Origin: a virus
Virus record (IMG/VR): IMGVR_UViG_3300033987_000026
Reading direction: 5' to 3' (one strand)
Length of the DNA stretch: 56,984 nt
In this document: positions 16,979 through 53,155 of the stretch, one piece after another
How positions within the stretch are numbered: position 1 is the stretch's first letter
How the letters are laid out: each line of letters begins with the position of its first letter
Position numbers and translations under genes: made by a program
Notes under the pieces: model-generated
Seen by the model: the letters and a program-made list of their open reading frames with translations, nothing else
Database searches by the model: none
What the model was told of the DNA's origin: nothing

Positions 16979-18379
16979 ATGGCTAACAATAATTTCAGGG
17001 AAATCGGCCGCATCGGACAAAAAAGATATGGTGGCTTTTTCTATGAGGAATTCCTGAAAGATCTCCAGGGAAGGAAAGGCGTCGAGGTTTACAAAGAGAT
17101 GAGTGAGAACGACGATGTAATCGGCGCAATCCTTTATGCGATCGAGATGTTAATCAGGCAAGTATCCTGGATGGTTCAACCGGGAGGACCCACAGCAAAG
17201 GATGAGGAAGCTGCAGAGTTCATCTACCAATGTATGGACGATATGCAGGATACCTGGACCGATACCATATCGGAAATCCTTTCATTCCTGACATATGGAT
17301 GGAGCGCTCACGAAATCGTGTATAAGAGGCGCGCCGGCAAGAGTAAGGATCCGCGACTAAACAGCAAATACAGCGATGGTCTCATAGGATGGCGCAAGCT
17401 GCCAATCAGAGCCCAGGAAACCCTCTGGGAATGGATATACGACGATGAGGACAATCTCCTCGGAATGATCCAGATGCCACCGCCAAAGTATGAGCTCATC
17501 ACGATACCGATTGAAAAACTCTTAATCTTCAGAACCAAGAGCAGGAAAGGCAGCCCGGAAGGAAAGAGTATTCTCCGTAACGCATATCGCAGCTGGTACT
17601 TCAAGCGCAGGATCCAAGAGATAGAGGGAATAGGTATCGAAAGAGATCTGGCTGGTTTCCCGGTATTGACAGCTCCGGAAAGAATGAATATCTGGGACGA
17701 GGACGACCCGGAAATGGAAGCAATCAGGATGGCTGCTGACAGGATCGTTCAAAACATAAGGCGAGACAGCATGGAAGGCTTGACATTACCGGCTGGATGG
17801 AAACTGGAACTATTGAGCACAGGAGGACGCCGCCAGTTTGACACTAATGCAATCATTGAAAGATACGACACCAGGATAGCAATGACCGTCCTGGCCGATT
17901 TCATTTTGTTAGGTCACCGGAAGGTGGGTAGCTTTGCATTATCCAGCGACAAGACGGAACTCTTTGCAATGGCCGTCGGAGCTTATCTGGACATTATCTG
18001 CGAGACTTTCAACAACAAAGCAATCCCGGCGCTGATTGATTTAAACGCTCAACACTTCGCAGGTATTACCGATTATCCGACACTGCAGCACGGAGACATT
18101 GAAAGCGCAGACATTCAGGCTCTGGCTTCTTACATCAAGGATATGACTGGCGTCGGTGTGCTGGTACCGGACGACCATCTCGAAGATTACGTGAGAGAAG
18201 TGGCCGGCCTGCCAGAAAGGCTGGATGATGGAACTAACCCAAGGCAGCCAAGACCGGCACGGAACAACAATTCTGATGTGAAGCCAGGCAAAGAGGCAGA
18301 CAACGACAACCTGGGAGATTTGGAGGACGATGAGGAAGCTGTAAAGAAGGCCAAGGAACGACTGGGGAGGTACGATTGA
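16979..18379 (+). CDS. Portal protein (DUF935 / Mu gp29-like)
   Basis: Size, position and YKEMSENDDVIGAILYAIEMLI-type N-terminal region. Followed by the MuF gene. Confidence 0.8.
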   Translation: MANNNFREIGRIGQKRYGGFFYEEFLKDLQGRKGVEVYKEMSENDDVIGAILYAIEMLIRQVSWMVQPGGPTAKDEEAAEFIYQCMDDMQDTWTDTISEILSFLTYGWSAHEIVYKRRAGKSKDPRLNSKYSDGLIGWRKLPIRAQETLWEWIYDDEDNLLGMIQMPPPKYELITIPIEKLLIFRTKSRKGSPEGKSILRNAYRSWYFKRRIQEIEGIGIERDLAGFPVLTAPERMNIWDEDDPEMEAIRMAADRIVQNIRRDSMEGLTLPAGWKLELLSTGGRRQFDTNAIIERYDTRIAMTVLADFILLGHRKVGSFALSSDKTELFAMAVGAYLDIICETFNNKAIPALIDLNAQHFAGITDYPTLQHGDIESADIQALASYIKDMTGVGVLVPDDHLEDYVREVAGLPERLDDGTNPRQPRPARNNNSDVKPGKEADNDNLGDLEDDEEAVKKAKERLGRYD

Positions 18380-21300
18380 TGTTCAGGATCCGGAAATCAA
18401 TACACCTGCACCCGATATACAAGGCAAAAAAGAAAAGCAAAGCAGCACAGGAGGTCCTCGATAAATTAAATGCCTTCCTGGATGCAACGGAGCCCGAACC
18501 GGTGTTTTTCCTCACCAGGCTATGGAAGGACCAGCAGCAGGCCATAACATATAAGGAATTAAGAGAGGCAATTCTCAACGGTTACATCGACGAAAAGACC
18601 ATCCAGGCCTGGCAGAACGACTACGCGAACTTTGTGAACGAGCATCTGAAACCTTTATGGATAGAGGCTATGCAGGCAGCCAATGAAGATTTGATGGCAG
18701 CACATCCGGAATATTTCTTCGACCCAATGAGCCAGGGTGTCCTTAAGTGGATCAACGAACATGGAGCACAATGGGTAACGGTAATAGCGGAGGAGCAGAA
18801 AGAAGCAATATCGGCCATGCTGCAGCATGCATACAGCGGAGCCTTCACCGTTGACGAGCTGGCCAGAGCGATCCGTGCGACGATAGGCCTGAATAAGGTC
18901 CAGGCCAAGGCCAACCTGAACTACTATCAGCATGTGAAGAAAACTCTCCTGGAAAACAACCCAGGCATGAAGGAATCAACGGCCCAGAAAAAAGCCCAGG
19001 AGGCAGCAGCGAAATACGCGGCCAAGCAGCATAGGCAAAGAGCTTTCACTATAGCCACAACTGAAATGGCCTTTGCTTACAACAAGGGAGCTGACGAAGG
19101 CATAAAGCAGGCCCAGGAGCAGAACCTCATAGGCAAGGTGGTGAAAGTTTGGAGCACAGCTGCAGATGAAGGTGTATGCTCTATATGCGGAGCGTTGGAC
19201 GGCGTCGAAGTGGAAATGGGCGCTGATTTTGATTTCAAAGGCAACGAGCTATACAGCGGCCAGAAGGAAACCCCACCGGCGCATCCACGCTGCAGATGCG
19301 CGCTGCTTTATGTAGAGAAGGAACCGCCGAAATATAAGACGGTGCCTGATCAAGAAGTGATCCAGAACTGGAACCCGGAAGATCAGATGCCGACACCGGA
19401 GCCTCCGGACCCAGCAAAACCAGTGATACCGCCGGCGGAGAAAATGCCACCAGGCATGAAATACAAAGGAAAAGCAAACCTCGGAGGAACCGGAGAAATG
19501 CACTTATACGTCGATGAGACCGGCCAGGAATGGCTATTCAAACCGGCACAAAGCAAAGCTGGAAAACCAGAAGCCTTCAGGGCATACGTCCAGGAGGCCG
19601 GATATAAGGTCCAGGCGATAATAGATCCAGACACAGCGGTACCGGTAGGAACTGGAGAACTGGGCGGCAAGTTTGGAGCCTTTCAGAAGAGAATAACCAC
19701 CGTCAACGACAAGATAGACCTGAAGCACTGGCAATACACCAGCGACCAGCTGCCACCGGGAACAGCCGCACAACTACAGAGAGAGCATGTAACCGACTGG
19801 CTACTGGCCAACTTTGACAGCCACGGTGGCAATTTCGTAATGGACGACGCCGGCAGGCTTATAGGAACAGACAAAGAACAGGCCTTCAGGTACATCAAGG
19901 AAATAGGCGCCCAGCAGATGAGCTACACATACCACCCAAACGCAACCTACGGGGAAACAGAGCCGATTTATAATACCTTATTCCGGAGGTTTGCAAAGGG
20001 AGAAATAGATCTGGATCTGCAGGATACATTGACTTACATCAAGAGAGTGGAGGCAATCCCAGATAACCAGTACCGGGAAATATTCAGAGACTATGCCGAA
20101 GCTCTATATGGGAAAGGCAAAGAAGCAGAGGAGCTGCTGGACCTGATCGTCGAGAGAAAAAACCGGTTAAGAGAAGACTACCGTCAATTTTTCAGCGACC
20201 TTCTCACAGAGCGAACCGGTAAAAAACAAGTGTTCGTCTGGGCAGACGAGGCTGCAGAGCATATGAAACAGCCACTAACGGCAGTAACACACAGCCCGGA
20301 AACCCTGCAAAAGATGAACATGGCAGAGCTTAAGCAACTGGCCAAACAAAAGCAGATCCCATACTACAACAATATGAATAAGACCCAGCTGATAACAGCT
20401 ATATCGGACCCGGTAAAAGCACCAGAAATGAGCGCCCAGGTAAGAAATAGGCTGCTGGCCAACGAGGCAGCCAGGAAAGCTGCAGCAAGAACACCAGCAG
20501 CGCAGAAGGCCAAAGAAATCGTATCTGCAGATGAAATATTCAAAGACGCCTCAATCATTCCGGAGAAAAAACTGGGCATTCCGGTCAGGAGCGACAAGGG
20601 CAGCGTTGAAGGCCTCAATTTAACGGCCAGGAGGATGCGCATATTAGACGACGCAAGCGGTACCGAATATGAGGTATACGAAATATCCGGAAAACTCACC
20701 AGGGAAGCATGGTCCAAGACATGGGATAAAATGAAGCCAATAGGAGAAATAGGAGAGCTGGAATTTGAGCTTGCAGACGATGTCAAAAAGCTCTTTGCTT
20801 CCAAGGCGGACCTCGGAGCTTCCATCCGGACCATAAAGGTAACCGACGGAGAAACCACATTCGAGCTTTATATCGATGGCCAGACAAGGAGATACAATGG
20901 ATGGCGTGGTTTTTTCAGATTGAGAACTCCGGTAACCTCAAACGGAGCTGCGGACGCTGCAAATATGAGAAACATGCTGCAGAAGCTGGAGCTTGATGAT
21001 CTTTTATTGAAACCGGACAGCGAGGCAGAAACGATCCTCAAAAAGAGCCGGCTTGTATGGCAACACGCTCCACATCGTATCCAGGAATTAGATGGTTTGA
21101 CGCCAGAGCAAATACCGATTAAACTGGATATGATATTAAAGCAAGAAGGAATAGACCCGAAGCGTATAAATAACATGAAGCTGGTTAAAGTCTTCGAAGG
21201 CTATTCAACTTATGTCGAAGAGGGCATCGTGGAAACATACAAGAAGGCAGGCCTGAAATATGTCTGGACCGGAGTTCCGGACGGAGACGACATCGTGAAG

Positions 21301-21798
21301 ATCATCCAAAGCCCTGGCCTGATGTCAAATAACAACCGTTTCAGGGCAGGATTGAGGCGCACAGGAGCAAGTCCGGTAGAAGACTTCCGGACCGGCGGCA
21401 GCGATAATGTATTCACCAGGATAGGCGTCAAGAATAAGAACAACCCAAGATTTGACGACTGCTACCGAGGGAACCGATATCGCATTCTTATTGATCCAAA
21501 AGTCATGGAGAGAACCGACTGGTATGCATATGAAGGAGACTCGTTCGGAAGCTCGGATCCGTCGGCACTGGCCGGCAGGCTTTCGCCGGTGGAATTTATT
21601 CAGAGAATGGCCACAAGCTACCGGTACGGGAACGAAATCATGTTCAGGCACGGAATAGCTAAGGAGACATTCATCGGGATATCATGCCAGAGCAACGCGC
21701 TCCGAGCAGAGCTCCTGGAGAAGTTCAAACAGGCGCATATTACTGCAGTAAACGGGATACCGATAGAAGATTTTGTAAAGGTGGGATCTACGATATGA
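18376..21798 (+). CDS. MuF/SPP1 gp7-like head morphogenesis domain fused to a large multi-domain extension (polyvalent virion protein)
   Basis: MuF motif KVWSTAADEGVCSICG...PPAHPRCRCAL (aa 256-310). Pro-rich linker. Kinase-like LFKP...DSHGGNF...GTDKE (aa 361-580). SAP/Rho_N-like aa 646-678. Unassigned C-terminal ~440 aa. Confidence 0.85.
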   Translation: MMFRIRKSIHLHPIYKAKKKSKAAQEVLDKLNAFLDATEPEPVFFLTRLWKDQQQAITYKELREAILNGYIDEKTIQAWQNDYANFVNEHLKPLWIEAMQAANEDLMAAHPEYFFDPMSQGVLKWINEHGAQWVTVIAEEQKEAISAMLQHAYSGAFTVDELARAIRATIGLNKVQAKANLNYYQHVKKTLLENNPGMKESTAQKKAQEAAAKYAAKQHRQRAFTIATTEMAFAYNKGADEGIKQAQEQNLIGKVVKVWSTAADEGVCSICGALDGVEVEMGADFDFKGNELYSGQKETPPAHPRCRCALLYVEKEPPKYKTVPDQEVIQNWNPEDQMPTPEPPDPAKPVIPPAEKMPPGMKYKGKANLGGTGEMHLYVDETGQEWLFKPAQSKAGKPEAFRAYVQEAGYKVQAIIDPDTAVPVGTGELGGKFGAFQKRITTVNDKIDLKHWQYTSDQLPPGTAAQLQREHVTDWLLANFDSHGGNFVMDDAGRLIGTDKEQAFRYIKEIGAQQMSYTYHPNATYGETEPIYNTLFRRFAKGEIDLDLQDTLTYIKRVEAIPDNQYREIFRDYAEALYGKGKEAEELLDLIVERKNRLREDYRQFFSDLLTERTGKKQVFVWADEAAEHMKQPLTAVTHSPETLQKMNMAELKQLAKQKQIPYYNNMNKTQLITAISDPVKAPEMSAQVRNRLLANEAARKAAARTPAAQKAKEIVSADEIFKDASIIPEKKLGIPVRSDKGSVEGLNLTARRMRILDDASGTEYEVYEISGKLTREAWSKTWDKMKPIGEIGELEFELADDVKKLFASKADLGASIRTIKVTDGETTFELYIDGQTRRYNGWRGFFRLRTPVTSNGAADAANMRNMLQKLELDDLLLKPDSEAETILKKSRLVWQHAPHRIQELDGLTPEQIPIKLDMILKQEGIDPKRINNMKLVKVFEGYSTYVEEGIVETYKKAGLKYVWTGVPDGDDIVKIIQSPGLMSNNNRFRAGLRRTGASPVEDFRTGGSDNVFTRIGVKNKNNPRFDDCYRGNRYRILIDPKVMERTDWYAYEGDSFGSSDPSALAGRLSPVEFIQRMATSYRYGNEIMFRHGIAKETFIGISCQSNALRAELLEKFKQAHITAVNGIPIEDFVKVGSTI

Positions 21799-48230: not shown

Positions 48231-48242
48231 GGAGGAATGAGA

Positions 48243-49163
48243 ATGAAGAATATAAGAGACAGAATCGCCGGCGCATTGTACGGCGTAGCAATAGGGGACG
48301 CATTAGGAGCTCCCCTGGAGTTCATGAGCAAGGAGGAGATTTCCAGGAAGCATGGCCGGGTAACAGAGATGATCGGAGGCGGCTGGCTGAACGTGATGCC
48401 AGGAGAGATCACCGACGACACACAGATGACCCTGGCAGTAGCTGAAGGAATTATAGAGGACCCGGACAACCCGATTAAGGCCATCGGTAAAAGGTTTATC
48501 GAATGGGCCAGGAGCGGACCGAAGGACATCGGAGGAACCTGCAGCATGAGTATCCGCTGGGCCATCTTCCTGGGCCAAAATGATGCGCCAGACGAAGAGA
48601 AATGGTTCGAGGCAAGTAAATATACCTCCAAAGCAAACGGAGGCCGTAGCGGCGGAAATGGAGCGCTTATGCGCACGGTTTACCCAGGTCTTTATTACAA
48701 GGATTTGCTGATGGCGGTAGAGACGGCCGGAGCCATAGCACAAATGACACACTGGGATAAAAAATCAACAGAGGCTTGTAATTTATACACGGAAATGATA
48801 CACTTAATTATCGAATCGGTTAATAAGGAACAGGCCCTGCAGATTATAAGAGACGTGCTCCAGGGAAGCGAATACTGCCTGGAAACCAGGAAGCAGCTCA
48901 ACCCCACCGGGTACGTCGTGGACAGTTTCAACTGCGTGCTCCACAGCATAGCAGCAACCGGGACCTTTGAGGAGGCCATAATCGAAGCCGCCAATCTTGG
49001 AGGAGACGCAGACACCATCGCGGCCATCACCGGCGGCCTGGCCGGAGCGATATACGGATACAACGAGATCCCGGAAAGATGGATCCAGGCCCTGGATCCG
49101 AAGATCAGGATGCAGCTCGACAAGCTCGTGGACGCAGCAGTAAAGAACAGGGAGGGCAGATAA
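48243..49163 (+). CDS. ADP-ribosylglycohydrolase family protein (DraG/ARH-like)
   Basis: GVAIGDALGAPLEF, GEITDDTQMTLAVAEG, GNGALMR, GGDADTIAAITGGLAGAIYG. Confidence 0.9.
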   Translation: MKNIRDRIAGALYGVAIGDALGAPLEFMSKEEISRKHGRVTEMIGGGWLNVMPGEITDDTQMTLAVAEGIIEDPDNPIKAIGKRFIEWARSGPKDIGGTCSMSIRWAIFLGQNDAPDEEKWFEASKYTSKANGGRSGGNGALMRTVYPGLYYKDLLMAVETAGAIAQMTHWDKKSTEACNLYTEMIHLIIESVNKEQALQIIRDVLQGSEYCLETRKQLNPTGYVVDSFNCVLHSIAATGTFEEAIIEAANLGGDADTIAAITGGLAGAIYGYNEIPERWIQALDPKIRMQLDKLVDAAVKNREGR

Positions 49164-49164
49164 C

Positions 49165-49422
49165 ATGGCAGGATACGGCAGACCGTTAAAAGGTAAAACC
49201 AGGCGCGTGCCGATTACGGTACACACGGCCATAGGCATACTTGATATAATCGACCAGTACGTCGAGGAGAGAAACCAGGAAGAGAAGGCTTATTCACGCT
49301 CGGATTTTTACAACGAGGCGGCCAGACTTTACCTGGAACACCTGGGGAGGTTACCTGAAGAGGAAAAGGACCCAGGGGAAAAGGAACCGTACCAAAATCG
49401 TACCGAAATTTTTCAGAAATAG
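49165..49422 (+). CDS. Ribbon-helix-helix-like small protein
   Basis: RRVPITVHTAIGILDIIDQYV...SRSDFYNEAARLYLEHL. ATG lies 2 nt after the ARH stop. Confidence 0.55.
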   Translation: MAGYGRPLKGKTRRVPITVHTAIGILDIIDQYVEERNQEEKAYSRSDFYNEAARLYLEHLGRLPEEEKDPGEKEPYQNRTEIFQK

Positions 49423-49620: not shown

Positions 49621-50772
49621 CTAATTTTTTGAGATTTCTTTTTCTACTTTTTCGAGATCCAAAACGACTGCAGAAGGACTTTCATTTTTGATGGTAGCAT
49701 GCCGATTTAGATCAGCAGCAACCTGCTCCATCTTGTTTGGATACAGATGTGCATAGGTAGACATGGCCACCTCGACAGTATCGCCCAGGCGCTCGGCCAC
49801 AGCCACGATGGAATAACCCAGCTCAACCAGCAAGGCAGCATGAGAATGACGGAGATCATGAACGCGGATCCGTTTCACGCCGGCAGCCTTGGCCGCCTCA
49901 TTGAGAGCACGCCCCAGAGTTCCCTTCTGGAAGTAGAATATACGGTCGTGCTCGTCGATATCATACAGAGCATTGATATACCGCATGACCTCATCATAGA
50001 GGAAATCAGGCATTGAGACATCCCGGTAACTGTTGTCGGTTTTAGGAGGCCCGTTCTTATCCTGGCCTTTGCGCCGGTGGTGAGTTTTTTCAATGCGGGC
50101 AATCTTTGAGGGAAGGATATCGGCAGGCTGCAGAGCGAGGCACTCGCCTTCACGGAGGCCCAGCCAGTACATGAGCATAAAGGCAACACGGAAGCTCCAG
50201 TTTGTGACGTAAGCCATGGCCTGGTTAAATTCAGACAAGGTCCAGAATTTCATCTTCCCGGCCTTCTTTTTACCCATGAAGCCGGCAGGATGGCACGGAT
50301 TAGACTTCAGGTTATAGAACTTAACCGCATAATTGAAAATGGCCGACAGCCGGCTATTTAACGACCGGATATAGGTTTCAGAATACTTTTTACCGGTCCG
50401 AGGATTTATGGCAGACATGACGGTGTTCTGCCAGTTCCGGATCGTCACGGCGTCAATTTCATTCACCGGGAGCTCACCAAAGTAAGGGAGCAGCCACTTG
50501 TCGATGATGGAATCCTGCGTGCCCTGCGTACCTTCCCGGACACGATGCTCGGCGTCGGCCCGGTACAATTCCACCAGGGAGGCAAACGACATTTCACAGT
50601 TCCGGCTATTCTTCAGGAGAAATTCACGCTCGAAGGCCAGGGCATCTGATCGTTTATCGAACCCTTCTTTTTTCTTTTTTCGTCTCTTCCCAGTCCAATC
50701 AGTATACCAGAAGGCAGCAAGCCATTTTATAGCTCCGCTTTTAGTTTTGTATTTATAAACAGGCAATCGCAT
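49621..50772 (-). CDS. int: Tyrosine recombinase (phage integrase)
   Basis: HDLRHSHA...MSTYAHLY catalytic region. AAGGAGG RBS before ATG at 50772. Confidence 0.95.
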   Translation of the reverse strand: MRLPVYKYKTKSGAIKWLAAFWYTDWTGKRRKKKKEGFDKRSDALAFEREFLLKNSRNCEMSFASLVELYRADAEHRVREGTQGTQDSIIDKWLLPYFGELPVNEIDAVTIRNWQNTVMSAINPRTGKKYSETYIRSLNSRLSAIFNYAVKFYNLKSNPCHPAGFMGKKKAGKMKFWTLSEFNQAMAYVTNWSFRVAFMLMYWLGLREGECLALQPADILPSKIARIEKTHHRRKGQDKNGPPKTDNSYRDVSMPDFLYDEVMRYINALYDIDEHDRIFYFQKGTLGRALNEAAKAAGVKRIRVHDLRHSHAALLVELGYSIVAVAERLGDTVEVAMSTYAHLYPNKMEQVAADLNRHATIKNESPSAVVLDLEKVEKEISKN

Positions 50773-50831
50773 GCCTCCTTTCACAAAAGCCCCGGCCAGA
50801 AAGCAGGCCGAGGCTTATTTTCATTCGTTAT

Positions 50832-51176
50832 TTATTCGGCTGCAGCGCCAGCCAGAACGTTATTGAAAGCAATTTCCCACTCAAGATATTTAGTAACCGC
50901 AAACTTGTACACTTCGCCGGCCTTCGTTTCAATCACAAGGACGTTATTGCTGAAGCCATGCTTCCCACGAGAGACACCTTTTATATCTTCCAAAGGGATC
51001 TCGAATTCATAATCGCCCTGCGTAAGGTTAACCAGGGCCCCGATGGCAATAATCTTTGAGAGTTTATGTCGGGAATAAATAAACCGACGGTTTGTCAGGA
51101 TCCCGCGCCCGTTTTGCACGTTAAAAGCGCCTTTTACCCTATTAGCAAGGCCTTCCATGATGATTTTTTCCTGCAT
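50832..51176 (-). CDS. Bacterial PH/GRAM-like small protein (lysogeny-module cargo)
   Basis: GILTNRRFIY...IPLEDIKGV...VLVIETK pattern. Location between int and the repressor. Confidence 0.45.
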   Translation of the reverse strand: MQEKIIMEGLANRVKGAFNVQNGRGILTNRRFIYSRHKLSKIIAIGALVNLTQGDYEFEIPLEDIKGVSRGKHGFSNNVLVIETKAGEVYKFAVTKYLEWEIAFNNVLAGAAAE

Positions 51177-51187
51177 TTCACCACCCC

Positions 51188-51763
51188 CTAAAGATCAGGA
51201 AACAATTCCTTCAAATACTCATAGTTTGCAGGAGACAGAGCCCGTGAAGTCAGAACACCCTGGAGCCAGAGCTCCATCCGGTTCTTGCGGCCACGCTCCG
51301 TTTTTAGCTGCGAAGCCTCTTCCCACGCGTGATCATAGGCACGCTTAAGGGCAGCATTAAATATCTGATCACGACGAGATCTGATATCCCGCAGCTGCGC
51401 TTTAAAATCATTTTGAGCCAGGCCGGCCAAAGCAAGATCAGCGTCCGAGGCCGACGCCAGCTGCTCCAGGAAATATTCCGCAGCAAAGAAACATGTAATA
51501 AACTGCTGAAAAACGAGAGAGGAACTCGCAGCATTAGAGAACTTCACAAAGGCTTCATAAACCCTTACAAGCCGGTGTTCCAGGAAGGATTCGTCCACCC
51601 AGGCAACAGCACACCGGCAACCATCATGTAGCGGAGGCTCCAGGACAGAATGCCCCGCAATTTCAAAAACCTCATCAATCCTCACGGCCGTGCCTTCCAG
51701 TTTAGCACAAAGCGAACAGGTGCAATCGTCGGCCGATGAAGACCACACCTTAAACATACCCAT
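51188..51763 (-). CDS. Stand-alone MuF-type Cys/His motif fused to an unknown helical domain (lysogeny-module cargo)
   Basis: FKVWSSSADDCTCSLCAKLEG...PPLHDGCRCAV parallels aa 256-310 of the 18376 ORF. AGGAGGG RBS. Confidence 0.6.
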   Translation of the reverse strand: MGMFKVWSSSADDCTCSLCAKLEGTAVRIDEVFEIAGHSVLEPPLHDGCRCAVAWVDESFLEHRLVRVYEAFVKFSNAASSSLVFQQFITCFFAAEYFLEQLASASDADLALAGLAQNDFKAQLRDIRSRRDQIFNAALKRAYDHAWEEASQLKTERGRKNRMELWLQGVLTSRALSPANYEYLKELFPDL

Positions 51764-51814
51764 GACCACCCTCCTCTCAATCCCAGAAGATAAAGTACCG
51801 CCGTAATTCGCGCT

Positions 51815-52231
51815 TTAAGCTTTCTCTTTGAAATCAACAACAGGCTCGGAGGACTTGATCTCTTCGAGCGTTTTCAACATGTCAATATATTCTGCGGCCT
51901 TCTCCTTTGCTTCAGGGGAAAGACTTTCAATTTTTTTAATAAGTTCTTTGTCGCCAGACGAAATCGCCTCGGCCATCTTCGGCTTTGACTTCGACGTACC
52001 ACATTTTGAGGATCTGGCTCGACCCATTTCATCGGATAGTCCCAGGATGAAATCGGCGGAGACGTCATAAAGCTCGATAAGAGCCCTAAGCGTTTCAGGG
52101 TCGGGTGTGGTTGCGTTATTCTCGTAGCGAGAAAGGGACTTATTGCTCAAGTTAATCGCCTTGTAGACATCAAGCTGAGTGAGACCTGCCCGTTCTCGAG
52201 CCATACGAAGACGTTCTCCAAAAGTGAGCAT
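51815..52231 (-). CDS. CI-like repressor (XRE-family HTH)
   Basis: FGERLRMARERAGLTQLDVYKAINLSNKSLSRYEN. Divergent from the cro-like gene. Confidence 0.85.
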   Translation of the reverse strand: MLTFGERLRMARERAGLTQLDVYKAINLSNKSLSRYENNATTPDPETLRALIELYDVSADFILGLSDEMGRARSSKCGTSKSKPKMAEAISSGDKELIKKIESLSPEAKEKAAEYIDMLKTLEEIKSSEPVVDFKEKA

Positions 52232-52385
52232 AGAGACACCTCCATTCTAACATTATATAACATTCGCAGGTTTTGAGAAAAAAATTCTCAAAAATTTAGA
52301 AATTCCTATTGACATCTCGGAAATCGAGAATTAAAATAGGATTAGAATTCTCAATAAGTGAGAACACGAAAGGAGGTTGCTAAAC
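52232..52385. promoter_or_regulatory. Lysis-lysogeny switch region: divergent promoters and GAGAA/TTCTC operator motifs
   Basis: Rightward TTGACA (52309-14), 17 nt, TAAAAT (52332-37). Leftward TATAAT (complement of 52252-57). GAGAA at 52275, 52326 and 52360; TTCTC at 52285 and 52348. Confidence 0.7.
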
Positions 52386-52616: not shown

Positions 52617-52675
52617 TATCCCCAATATTGAGAATCTTTATGCATCAATTATATTGCAGGGAGGTGACCAAATAT

Positions 52676-53155
52676 ATGGCCAAAAAGGCTACGAAAGCCG
52701 CAGATAACATTTTTTACAAAGCACGAATGGAAGCAGCAGCGTGCAACGACAGATTAAGCAGCCGCGAAGGAGCAGCTGAACAGCTCGGAATTGACCGTAC
52801 CAGGCTTGCACGAATAGAACTCGGTAGCCTTAACCCATACCCAGAAGAAGTCCTTCTGATGAGCGACGCATATAACGCACCAGAGCTCAATAATTACTTT
52901 TGCTCAAAGATGTGCCCGATCGGAAAAGCAACCATACCGACAGCAGAACTTCTTCACTTGGACAGGCTCACGATCAGGATCTTGACAGCATTGGGAAATA
53001 CAGAGTTCATCCAGAGGACTATCCTCGAGATAGTGAAAGACGGGGTTATTTCAGACGATGAGCAACCGCGGGTTGAGCAAATACTCACAGCACTTGAAAA
53101 TGTCTCAAAGGCAGCATTAGAGATGAAGTTGTGGGTAGAGAAAAACTTAAGGTAA
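52676..53155 (+). CDS. HTH-containing early regulator (XRE-like)
   Basis: REGAAEQLGIDRTRLARIELG. AGGGAGGTG RBS. Confidence 0.55.
   Translation: MAKKATKAADNIFYKARMEAAACNDRLSSREGAAEQLGIDRTRLARIELGSLNPYPEEVLLMSDAYNAPELNNYFCSKMCPIGKATIPTAELLHLDRLTIRILTALGNTEFIQRTILEIVKDGVISDDEQPRVEQILTALENVSKAALEMKLWVEKNLR

Follow-up and report, generated by a model that had tools for sequence, protein, structure and literature searches.

The interval between the integrase and repressor genes of temperate phages is a well-known hotspot for cargo, and the logic of carrying such genes next to the repressor is equally familiar. The Sie2009-type membrane proteins of lactococcal phages and the Ltp lipoprotein of S. 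thermophilus TP-J34 are encoded by exclusion genes in this interval, and ImmA-type antirepressor proteases occupy the slot beside the repressor in many Gram-positive phages. As to MuF proteins, one survey found a portal or terminase gene near 85% of the muf genes in phage genomes and 87% of those in bacterial chromosomes (PMC5576092). Through a strong interaction with the portal, the gp7 protein of SPP1 enters the procapsid, and it helps infection to begin (PMC6316719); MuF domains also serve to bring effectors into virions (PMC5576092, PMC5512222, PMC3482391). Here we describe a gene, X, that joins a MuF-type zinc knuckle to a conserved helical domain and lies between repressor and integrase in the IMG/VR virus record IMGVR_UViG_3300033987_000026 (hereafter the window, meaning the whole stretch of 56,984 nucleotides (nt) that was analysed). 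Given the survey figures, a MuF module in a lysogeny slot is atypical. We tentatively read X as a lysogen-expressed superinfection-exclusion or defence factor, that is, as a participant in phage-against-phage conflict, and put this somewhat short of an even chance.

The window is a genome of ~57 kilobases (kb), temperate and siphovirus-like, with the lysogeny module at the end opposite the portal and MuF genes. The features needed to compare X with the phage's own head protein are these:

51188..51763, minus strand: gene X, 191 amino acids (aa) plus stop; open reading frame (ORF) with ribosome-binding site, 49 homologue clusters
51593..51754, minus strand: MuF-type zinc knuckle of X, aa 4-57, KVWSS..D..C16xxC19 ... 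PPLH47xxC50xC52
51191..51586, minus strand: helical domain of X, aa 60-191, seven helices predicted (AlphaFold2)
16979-18379: portal gene, Mu-type, Portal_Mu E 2e-41
18376-21798, plus strand: the phage's own MuF head protein, 1140 aa, Pfam Phage_Mu_F E 2e-9, directly after the portal gene
19138..19329, plus strand: zinc knuckle of the own MuF protein, aa 255-318 (Pfam Phage_Mu_F; hhalign against X)

The ORF finder lists X as 193 aa from a GTG at 51769. However, a GAGGAGG box at 51776-51770 lies 6 nt ahead of an ATG at 51763, and because of this spacing, and because database homologues begin MGMFKV, we place the start at that ATG. The resulting protein is predicted to be soluble and cytoplasmic and consists of two modules, the zinc knuckle and then the helical domain.

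A preliminary description of this DNA, made from the letters alone, had drawn a parallel between the first ~55 aa of X and a motif of the phage's own head protein. This parallel was borne out by BLASTP, hhalign and Foldseek. In BLASTP, aa 1-68 of X aligned with aa 251-323 of the own MuF protein at E 3e-12 and 32% identity, with C16, C19, H47, C50 and C52 of X opposite C268, C271, H303, C306 and C308. A formal profile comparison of the two segments was also significant: a 20-sequence profile of the X family matched an 8-sequence profile of the own-MuF lineage with a probability of 98.1% and E 1.3e-13 over 59 columns (hhalign). The AlphaFold2 model of X is compact (predicted local distance difference test score (pLDDT) 90, predicted template-modelling score 0.86), and in a Foldseek search against BFVD it retrieved dozens of MuF and minor capsid proteins over ~60-70 columns. 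PHROG head-morphogenesis families match X over the knuckle stretch as well, at E down to 5.5e-7. The knuckle of X is a genuine MuF-type CxxC...HxxCxC motif, with a similarity far beyond chance.

The similarity covers only one part of the MuF domain. Pfam Phage_Mu_F (PF04233) matches X at E 8.7e-6 over positions 66-111 of 112 only, and the score of 26.9 bits, against a gathering cut-off of 29.6, leaves X outside full-domain membership; for TIGR01641 the score is 19.8 against a cut-off of 39.65. X thus carries the knuckle of the MuF domain without the helical part that precedes it in head proteins. Thus, compared with the MuF/SPP1 gp7 head proteins (PF04233, PF06152), X shares the C-terminal CxxC...HxxCxC knuckle in sequence and predicted fold, but the helices that make up the N-terminal and central parts of the domain are missing from it; its gene lies in the repressor-integrase module instead of following the portal gene in the packaging module, and the window phage has a bona fide 1140-aa MuF protein besides X. 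The idea that the helical domain of X represents the N-terminal MuF helices in rearranged form found no support in sequence profiles, hhalign against the 1140-aa protein having matched nothing outside the knuckle. X also differs from MuF polymorphic toxins and polyvalent proteins, in which an N-terminal MuF domain is combined with a variable C-terminal effector and a downstream immunity gene. The MuF part of X is a fragment, its C-terminal domain is conserved rather than polymorphic and matches no known toxin family, and the gene downstream (Y, described below) is distributed independently, unlike a cognate immunity gene.

The own MuF protein has a feature that merits separate mention. Its C-terminal 810 aa (19366-21795, plus strand) are shared by 35 viral contigs with identities of 59-96%, many residues being invariant, and Pfam finds there only a Rho_N/SAP-like stretch at aa 644-676, with no match in PDB. 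This is probably an uncharacterised virion-delivered effector region.

The preliminary description had laid its emphasis on the knuckle motif; the homology stands, as described above, but the motif is not the core of the protein. Homologues of X form 49 clusters, with intact frames down to 46% identity, and the invariant positions among these clusters all lie in residues 60-191, where the window protein carries the signature D134..FN138.A..R143AY ... LK156T157E.G160R. Moreover, natural forms of 132 aa (P0046-48) lack the knuckle and keep both the slot position and the helical domain. In one of the loci that encode them (L015) the gap after the repressor gene cI is only 54 nt, so that nothing is hidden between the two genes. 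To judge from this conservation, the core of X is the ~130-aa helical domain and not the MuF motif. The 132-aa forms also lack a zinc ribbon that is found as an additional N-terminal element in some X lineages, giving 250-aa forms.

Two side observations concern these variants. The ribbon of a 250-aa form (CSCG...CPSCG; L006:6001-6150) resembles the N-terminal ribbon of a 164-aa membrane protein (L069:3471-3965; L005:6573-7067) at BLASTP E 1e-5 over 34 aa, a likeness that points to an exchange of modules where the cargo slot begins. In addition, the 210-aa homologue P0003 contains an exact 19-residue tandem duplication (LEQLASASDADLALAGLAQ) within the helical domain.

The remaining ~135 aa of X had been described as helical and unassigned, and we came to the same result. 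Beyond the seven predicted helices, the helical domain has no match in Pfam, PADLOC or NCBIfam, NCBIfam giving only a weak gp7 match for X. Foldseek of the X model against PDB gave nothing under E 0.4, and no credible match was obtained when PDB sequences were searched with the A1 and A4 profiles (hmmsearch). Four BFVD matches to the X model align over 127-131 columns (Foldseek), and the helical domain may resemble the MuF N-terminal helices in structure only.

We then estimated the selection acting on X. The ratio of non-synonymous to synonymous substitution rates (dN/dS) is 0.13 and 0.25 against two close relatives, and both modules are constrained. In every pair, X exceeds cI, Y and the integrase gene int in dN by a factor of 2-4; at L015, the amino-acid identities are 55% for X, 83% for cI, 83% for Y and 85% for int. 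X is a working gene under purifying selection, and a fast-changing one. Fast change is common in conflict genes, but is no proof of such a role. These values bear on a simpler explanation, namely that X is a decaying head-gene fragment without a function of its own. Its match to only 46 of the 112 Pfam MuF positions, at a score below the gathering cut-off, would agree with decay, as would the existence of one frameshifted copy (L118). Decay is contradicted, however, by the selection data (dN/dS 0.13-0.25 for both modules), and the intact frames across the 49 clusters, the compact and confident AlphaFold2 model and the conserved signature of the helical-domain family all argue against it. We find this explanation hardly credible.

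The surroundings of X in the lysogeny module are as follows:

52309-52337, plus strand: divergent promoter-like site, for a cro-like gene, facing the site at 52252..52279 (consensus scan)
52252..52279, minus strand: promoter-like site upstream of the repressor; TTCTCA, 16 nt spacer, TATAAT (consensus scan)
51815..52231, minus strand: CI-like repressor, 138 aa, N-terminal Xre-type helix-turn-helix (HTH), Pfam HTH_3 E 9.5e-14
50832..51176, minus strand: gene Y, 114 aa, PH/GRAM-like fold (AlphaFold2 and Foldseek against PDB)
50783..50816, minus strand: terminator-like hairpin, 11-bp stem then UUUUGUG, between Y and the integrase ribosome-binding site
49621..50772, minus strand: tyrosine integrase, 383 aa, Pfam Phage_integrase, Phage_int_SAM_3 and Arm-DNA-bind_4

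The reported positions of X and Y were confirmed: both are minus-strand genes and fall between int (49621-50772) and the repressor (51815-52231), and the end coordinate given for X was correct. Their place in the lysogeny module is further supported by short gaps behind the repressor (51 nt from cI to X, 11 nt from X to Y), by a ribosome-binding site for each gene and by the hairpin after Y. The promoter-like site upstream of the repressor and the one facing it have 10/12 and 11/12 consensus matches, respectively, and the former is the probable start of a cI-X-Y transcript. The hairpin has a predicted RNA folding energy of -22.3 kcal/mol (z -2.55) and is terminator-like, so it may end transcription after Y. 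The repressor also matches PHROG transcriptional regulator/repressor families and, by Pfam, has no S24 autocleavage domain. With this layout, the lysogen most likely produces X along with the repressor.

The order cI, X, an optional variable gene and int is constant in the lineage, at X identities from 100% down to 41%. The gene after X may be Y, a zinc-ribbon membrane protein (L005, L027), a membrane-anchored protein (L018, L026) or nothing (L001). Relatives without X have other genes in the slot, including an HSDR_N-domain protein (L068) and a lipoprotein-like protein (L072). Phages with a cI 56-63% identical also lack X; they carry the 164-aa zinc-ribbon membrane protein there (L069, L052-55) or have an empty slot (L051). 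The int-to-cI interval is indeed a cargo hotspot in these phages, as the preliminary description had supposed from temperate phages in general. A metagenome scan for X returned mostly the same phage lineage, and a search of a genome collection found one locus, in a Dethiobacter metagenome-assembled genome.

A natural control without X is the near-identical sibling IMGVR_UViG_3300021045_000005 (L061, L105; 55.9 kb). Its MuF protein is 96% and its integrase 97% identical to those of the window phage, but it has no X and its immunity cassette has been swapped, with cI 48% and Y 51% identical. This sibling indicates that X moves together with the immunity cassette rather than the head genes, and that the own MuF protein does not need X. 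Two candidate roles, immunity to the phage's own MuF cargo and help in head assembly, were rejected on the same ground. Within the lysogeny module, X counts as an accessory gene of the moron type.

Gene Y was examined in the same way. Its AlphaFold2 model (pLDDT 82) has seven strands and a C-terminal helix, the PH fold, and Foldseek of this model against PDB gave 81 matches at E <=1e-3, with E down to 3.5e-5. The best 50 of the 81 are all PH or PH-like domains, at template-modelling scores of 0.61-0.71, which upholds the earlier PH/GRAM-like call for the 114-aa ORF. No Pfam bacterial-PH or GRAM model matches Y, the only hit being a sub-threshold one to Vps36 GLUE (E 0.028); Y shares the fold of bacterial PH/GRAM-like domains but matches no curated PH/GRAM sequence model. 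Its homologues form 47 clusters, some with C-terminal zinc ribbons or SHOCT tails, and one is named GRAM domain-containing protein in one source.

It had also been suggested that X works with Y, and the two could be imagined as a two-gene system in which the PH-like protein acts with the MuF-motif protein. The genes are adjacent, with the 11-nt gap, in the window phage and several relatives, and Y-like PH domains could provide a membrane contact that is absent from X. A survey of their co-occurrence contradicts this idea: they are not a fixed pair, each occurs alone, and all four combinations (X and Y, X only, Y only, neither) were found. L001, L005, L018 and L026 have X but no Y; phage L061 has Y but no X, and so do the chromosomes of Proteiniborus ethanoligenes and a Bacillus, in which no phage genes surround Y. 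In the remnant L118 an intact Y sits beside a frameshifted X. Y is also much more conserved than X, with 83-93% versus 55-91% identity in the same pairs. We therefore consider a two-gene system highly unlikely; as far as these sequences tell, Y is an independent PH-fold cargo gene that shares the slot with X.

The Y copies of L118 and Proteiniborus have similar neighbours. In L118 (176-1118) the frameshifted X and intact Y abut nrdG/nrdD, the genes for anaerobic ribonucleotide reductase, with no integrase, and the Proteiniborus homologue (L009-L013:1876-5336) also adjoins nrdD/nrdG. Chromosomal Y may be a domesticated prophage relic.

The helical domain defines a small family of its own. When 1.84 billion representatives were scanned with a profile of this domain only, 64 proteins reached E <=1e-3 and 22 of them E <=1e-10; they share the signature N.AI.RAY....A..LKTE.G+..R. 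Two unannotated PHROG families are matched by members of this set, phrog_7974 by 28/64 and phrog_17596 by 23/64; X itself barely touches phrog_17596 (E 0.095). N-terminal hydrophobic anchors are present in at least 21 of the 64 representatives and DUF4236 in five, and other partners of the domain include TerB_N, SAP, TM2 and zinc ribbons. The phrog_7974 and phrog_17596 proteins thus have the helical domain in common with X, but carry DUF4236 or membrane anchors where X has its knuckle. Where a knuckle is present it may be N-terminal, in the middle (P0148) or C-terminal (P0123, P0150). The knuckle of P0150 is of the MuF2/Phage_min_cap2 type and, at 40 bits, above the Pfam cut-off. P0102 is a membrane-tethered version of X, and P0103, P0105 and P0113 are distant knuckle-plus-helical proteins on contigs too short for context. 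Since knuckles of two MuF subfamilies have been joined to the same domain several times and in different orders, the knuckle would appear to be a selected functional module.

Some family members have a ~60-residue N-terminal module ahead of the helical domain (aa 1-63 in P0137) that is DUF4236-like by eye, although Pfam assigned no family in P0137. The same module, at 60-70% identity, begins proteins that otherwise differ from one another in many Gram-positive temperate phages, including Streptococcus, Enterococcus and Paenibacillus phages (H24-H43). Some of these proteins are annotated as HIRAN domain proteins, and in many records their genes lie within ~3 kb of the genome end. The module looks like a shared adaptor.

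In at least three other phage lineages, three of them unrelated to the window phage by integrase, a helical-domain protein is encoded directly upstream of the integrase. The loci are:

L137: LexA-like S24 repressor, P0150 (anchor, two helical domains, MuF2 knuckle), integrase; no BLAST similarity to the window integrase
L138: HTH repressor, P0148, small minus-strand ORF, integrase; integrase 42% identical to the window's
L135: P0162 (helical only), integrase; integrase 25% identical to the window's
L136: P0161 (zinc ribbon plus helical), integrase; no similarity to the window integrase

P0148 itself combines an anchor with a helical domain and a weak knuckle, and its additional C-terminal sequence gives one weak TPR match (E 0.099). 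Such recurrence immediately upstream of integrases in unrelated phages, together with the position of X directly downstream of a repressor without an S24 autocleavage domain, could also mean that X regulates the lysis-lysogeny switch, either in the place of ImmA as a partner, sensor or antagonist of cI, or as a modulator of the integrase. Indeed, like the ImmA/IrrE metalloproteases (COG2856), X is encoded beside the repressor and ahead of the integrase. However, it has no HExxH motif and no Peptidase_M78/ImmA match in either Pfam or NCBIfam, and its predicted fold differs. A cI of the same family (56-63% identity) occurs in phages that have no X, the repressor of L137 is of the LexA-like S24 type and needs no helper, many helical-domain relatives are membrane-tethered, and X evolves faster than cI and not in step with it. 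A role in the switch is, in our view, unlikely.

The helical domain is also found outside the lysogeny module. A tblastn search of GenBank phage records gave no match for P0112, P0146 and P0121, and for X, P0147 and P0102 only MuF-knuckle matches, in head or unannotated genes; the exception was the DUF4236 proteins of C. difficile phages. The gp15 protein of C. difficile phage phiCD38-2 (L109:7001-7642, corresponding to NC_015568.1 10168-10809) combines DUF4236 with the helical domain, which scores 75 bits against the domain profile, so that it too has DUF4236 in place of the knuckle of X. A protein of this kind is encoded between the tail assembly chaperone and the tape-measure gene in phiCD38-2, phiCD146, phiCD111 and CDSH1, which are cultivable phages in which the helical domain could be studied. 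The AcrIB2 of phiCD38-2 is a different gene from gp15.

That gp15 is encoded in a late tail module would fit another explanation, in which X is virion cargo: at induction the knuckle would target the portal or procapsid, and the helical domain would be delivered to the next host, making X a small stand-alone counterpart of the polyvalent MuF effectors, for instance an anti-defence factor. In agreement with this, the portal directs gp7-like proteins to the procapsid, and effector delivery has been proposed for MuF fusions (PMC6316719, PMC5576092, PMC5512222). In contrast, X is part of the repressor operon and is oriented away from the late genes, knuckle-less forms persist, the sibling with a 96% identical MuF protein has no X, and membrane-anchored relatives, including the knuckle-bearing P0102, P0148 and P0150, could not be packaged. 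We regard packaging of X as quite unlikely.

We favour instead the reading of X as an exclusion or defence factor, to which the exclusion- and defence-type cargo in the slot of its relatives (membrane, lipoprotein-like and HSDR_N proteins) lends weight. In the mechanism that we envisage, X would be produced in the lysogen, and its knuckle, which comes from the C-terminal end of the MuF/gp7 head domain, would engage a partner of head MuF proteins. Candidate partners are the portal and the complex of DNA and protein that is ejected at infection, and the phages concerned could be incoming ones or ones that assemble in the cell. Blocking or signalling would then fall to the helical domain, which in many relatives would be tethered at the cytoplasmic face of the membrane. 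The decoy or sensor role suggested in the preliminary description gains indirect support from the independent joining of MuF-type knuckles to this domain at the same place in other phages. A further-reaching version with a specific mimic mechanism, in which the helical domain defines a new exclusion or defence class, often membrane-tethered, that has repeatedly captured the MuF/gp7 knuckle as a mimic of a virion protein, so as to intercept the portal or the ejected head-internal proteins of competing phages, would be a mode of superinfection exclusion not described before; it seems to us rather doubtful.

Several observations weigh against assigning X to exclusion or defence. Neither X nor Y matched any family of PADLOC-DB 2.0 at E up to 1, and for X this absence counts against such a role. 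X has no hydrophobic segment, signal peptide or lipobox, unlike classical Sie proteins. The knuckle appears dispensable in some lineages, given that the 132-aa forms do without it while retaining slot and helical domain, and it need not be the element with which MuF proteins bind the portal. Most contexts in the X lineage share ancestry and so are not independent, and of the more distant cases P0148 and P0150 match the helical domain only at E ~2-3e-4 (library search), the knuckle of P0148 being weak as well (Pfam E 0.029). Finally, gp15 of phiCD38-2 lies between the tail chaperone and tape-measure genes and not in a lysogeny module.

The closest functional parallels to the favoured reading are exclusion genes of the Sie2009/Ltp type. 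X shares with them the slot, the co-orientation with the repressor, an accessory distribution and fast evolution, and its helical-domain relatives are often membrane-tethered; it is not known, however, to resemble them in sequence or fold, and it has neither a membrane anchor nor a lipobox. The statement in the preliminary description that no system with this architecture was known still holds, in that none is contained in PADLOC and none came up in full-text literature searches, which also gave nothing on MuF modules in lysogeny modules or defence, nor on DUF4236. Unlike the hotspot and its cargo, the domain architecture of X and the helical family are not well known.

Two further genes near the lysogeny module deserve mention. 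Across the attachment region from the integrase lies an ADP-ribosylglycohydrolase gene (48237-49163, plus strand; Pfam E 3e-65), which is DraG/Tri1-like by NCBIfam, under both cut-offs, and has an 85-aa ORF beside it (49165-49422, plus strand). It is kept in relatives at 60-92% identity and in a constant position, and could be an immunity or anti-defence gene, perhaps tied to an ADP-ribosylating activity. Just past the cro-like gene, 52628-53155 (plus strand) encodes a 175-aa protein with a weak HTH match and a 48% identical counterpart (L138:3484-3957, minus strand) in a distantly related phage with a different repressor; it is probably a second regulator of the switch.

Should the exclusion or defence reading of X prove wrong, the gene would still be a clean case of a fast-evolving accessory gene travelling with the immunity cassette. 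If it is correct, prophages could recruit a piece of a virion protein to serve an exclusion or defence factor as its recognition module, and the MuF knuckle would become accessible through a small soluble protein. A role would also be assigned to an unannotated domain (phrog_7974/phrog_17596) that lies beside integrases in several phage lineages, and a new family would be added to the cargo of the integrase-repressor hotspot in Firmicutes phages.

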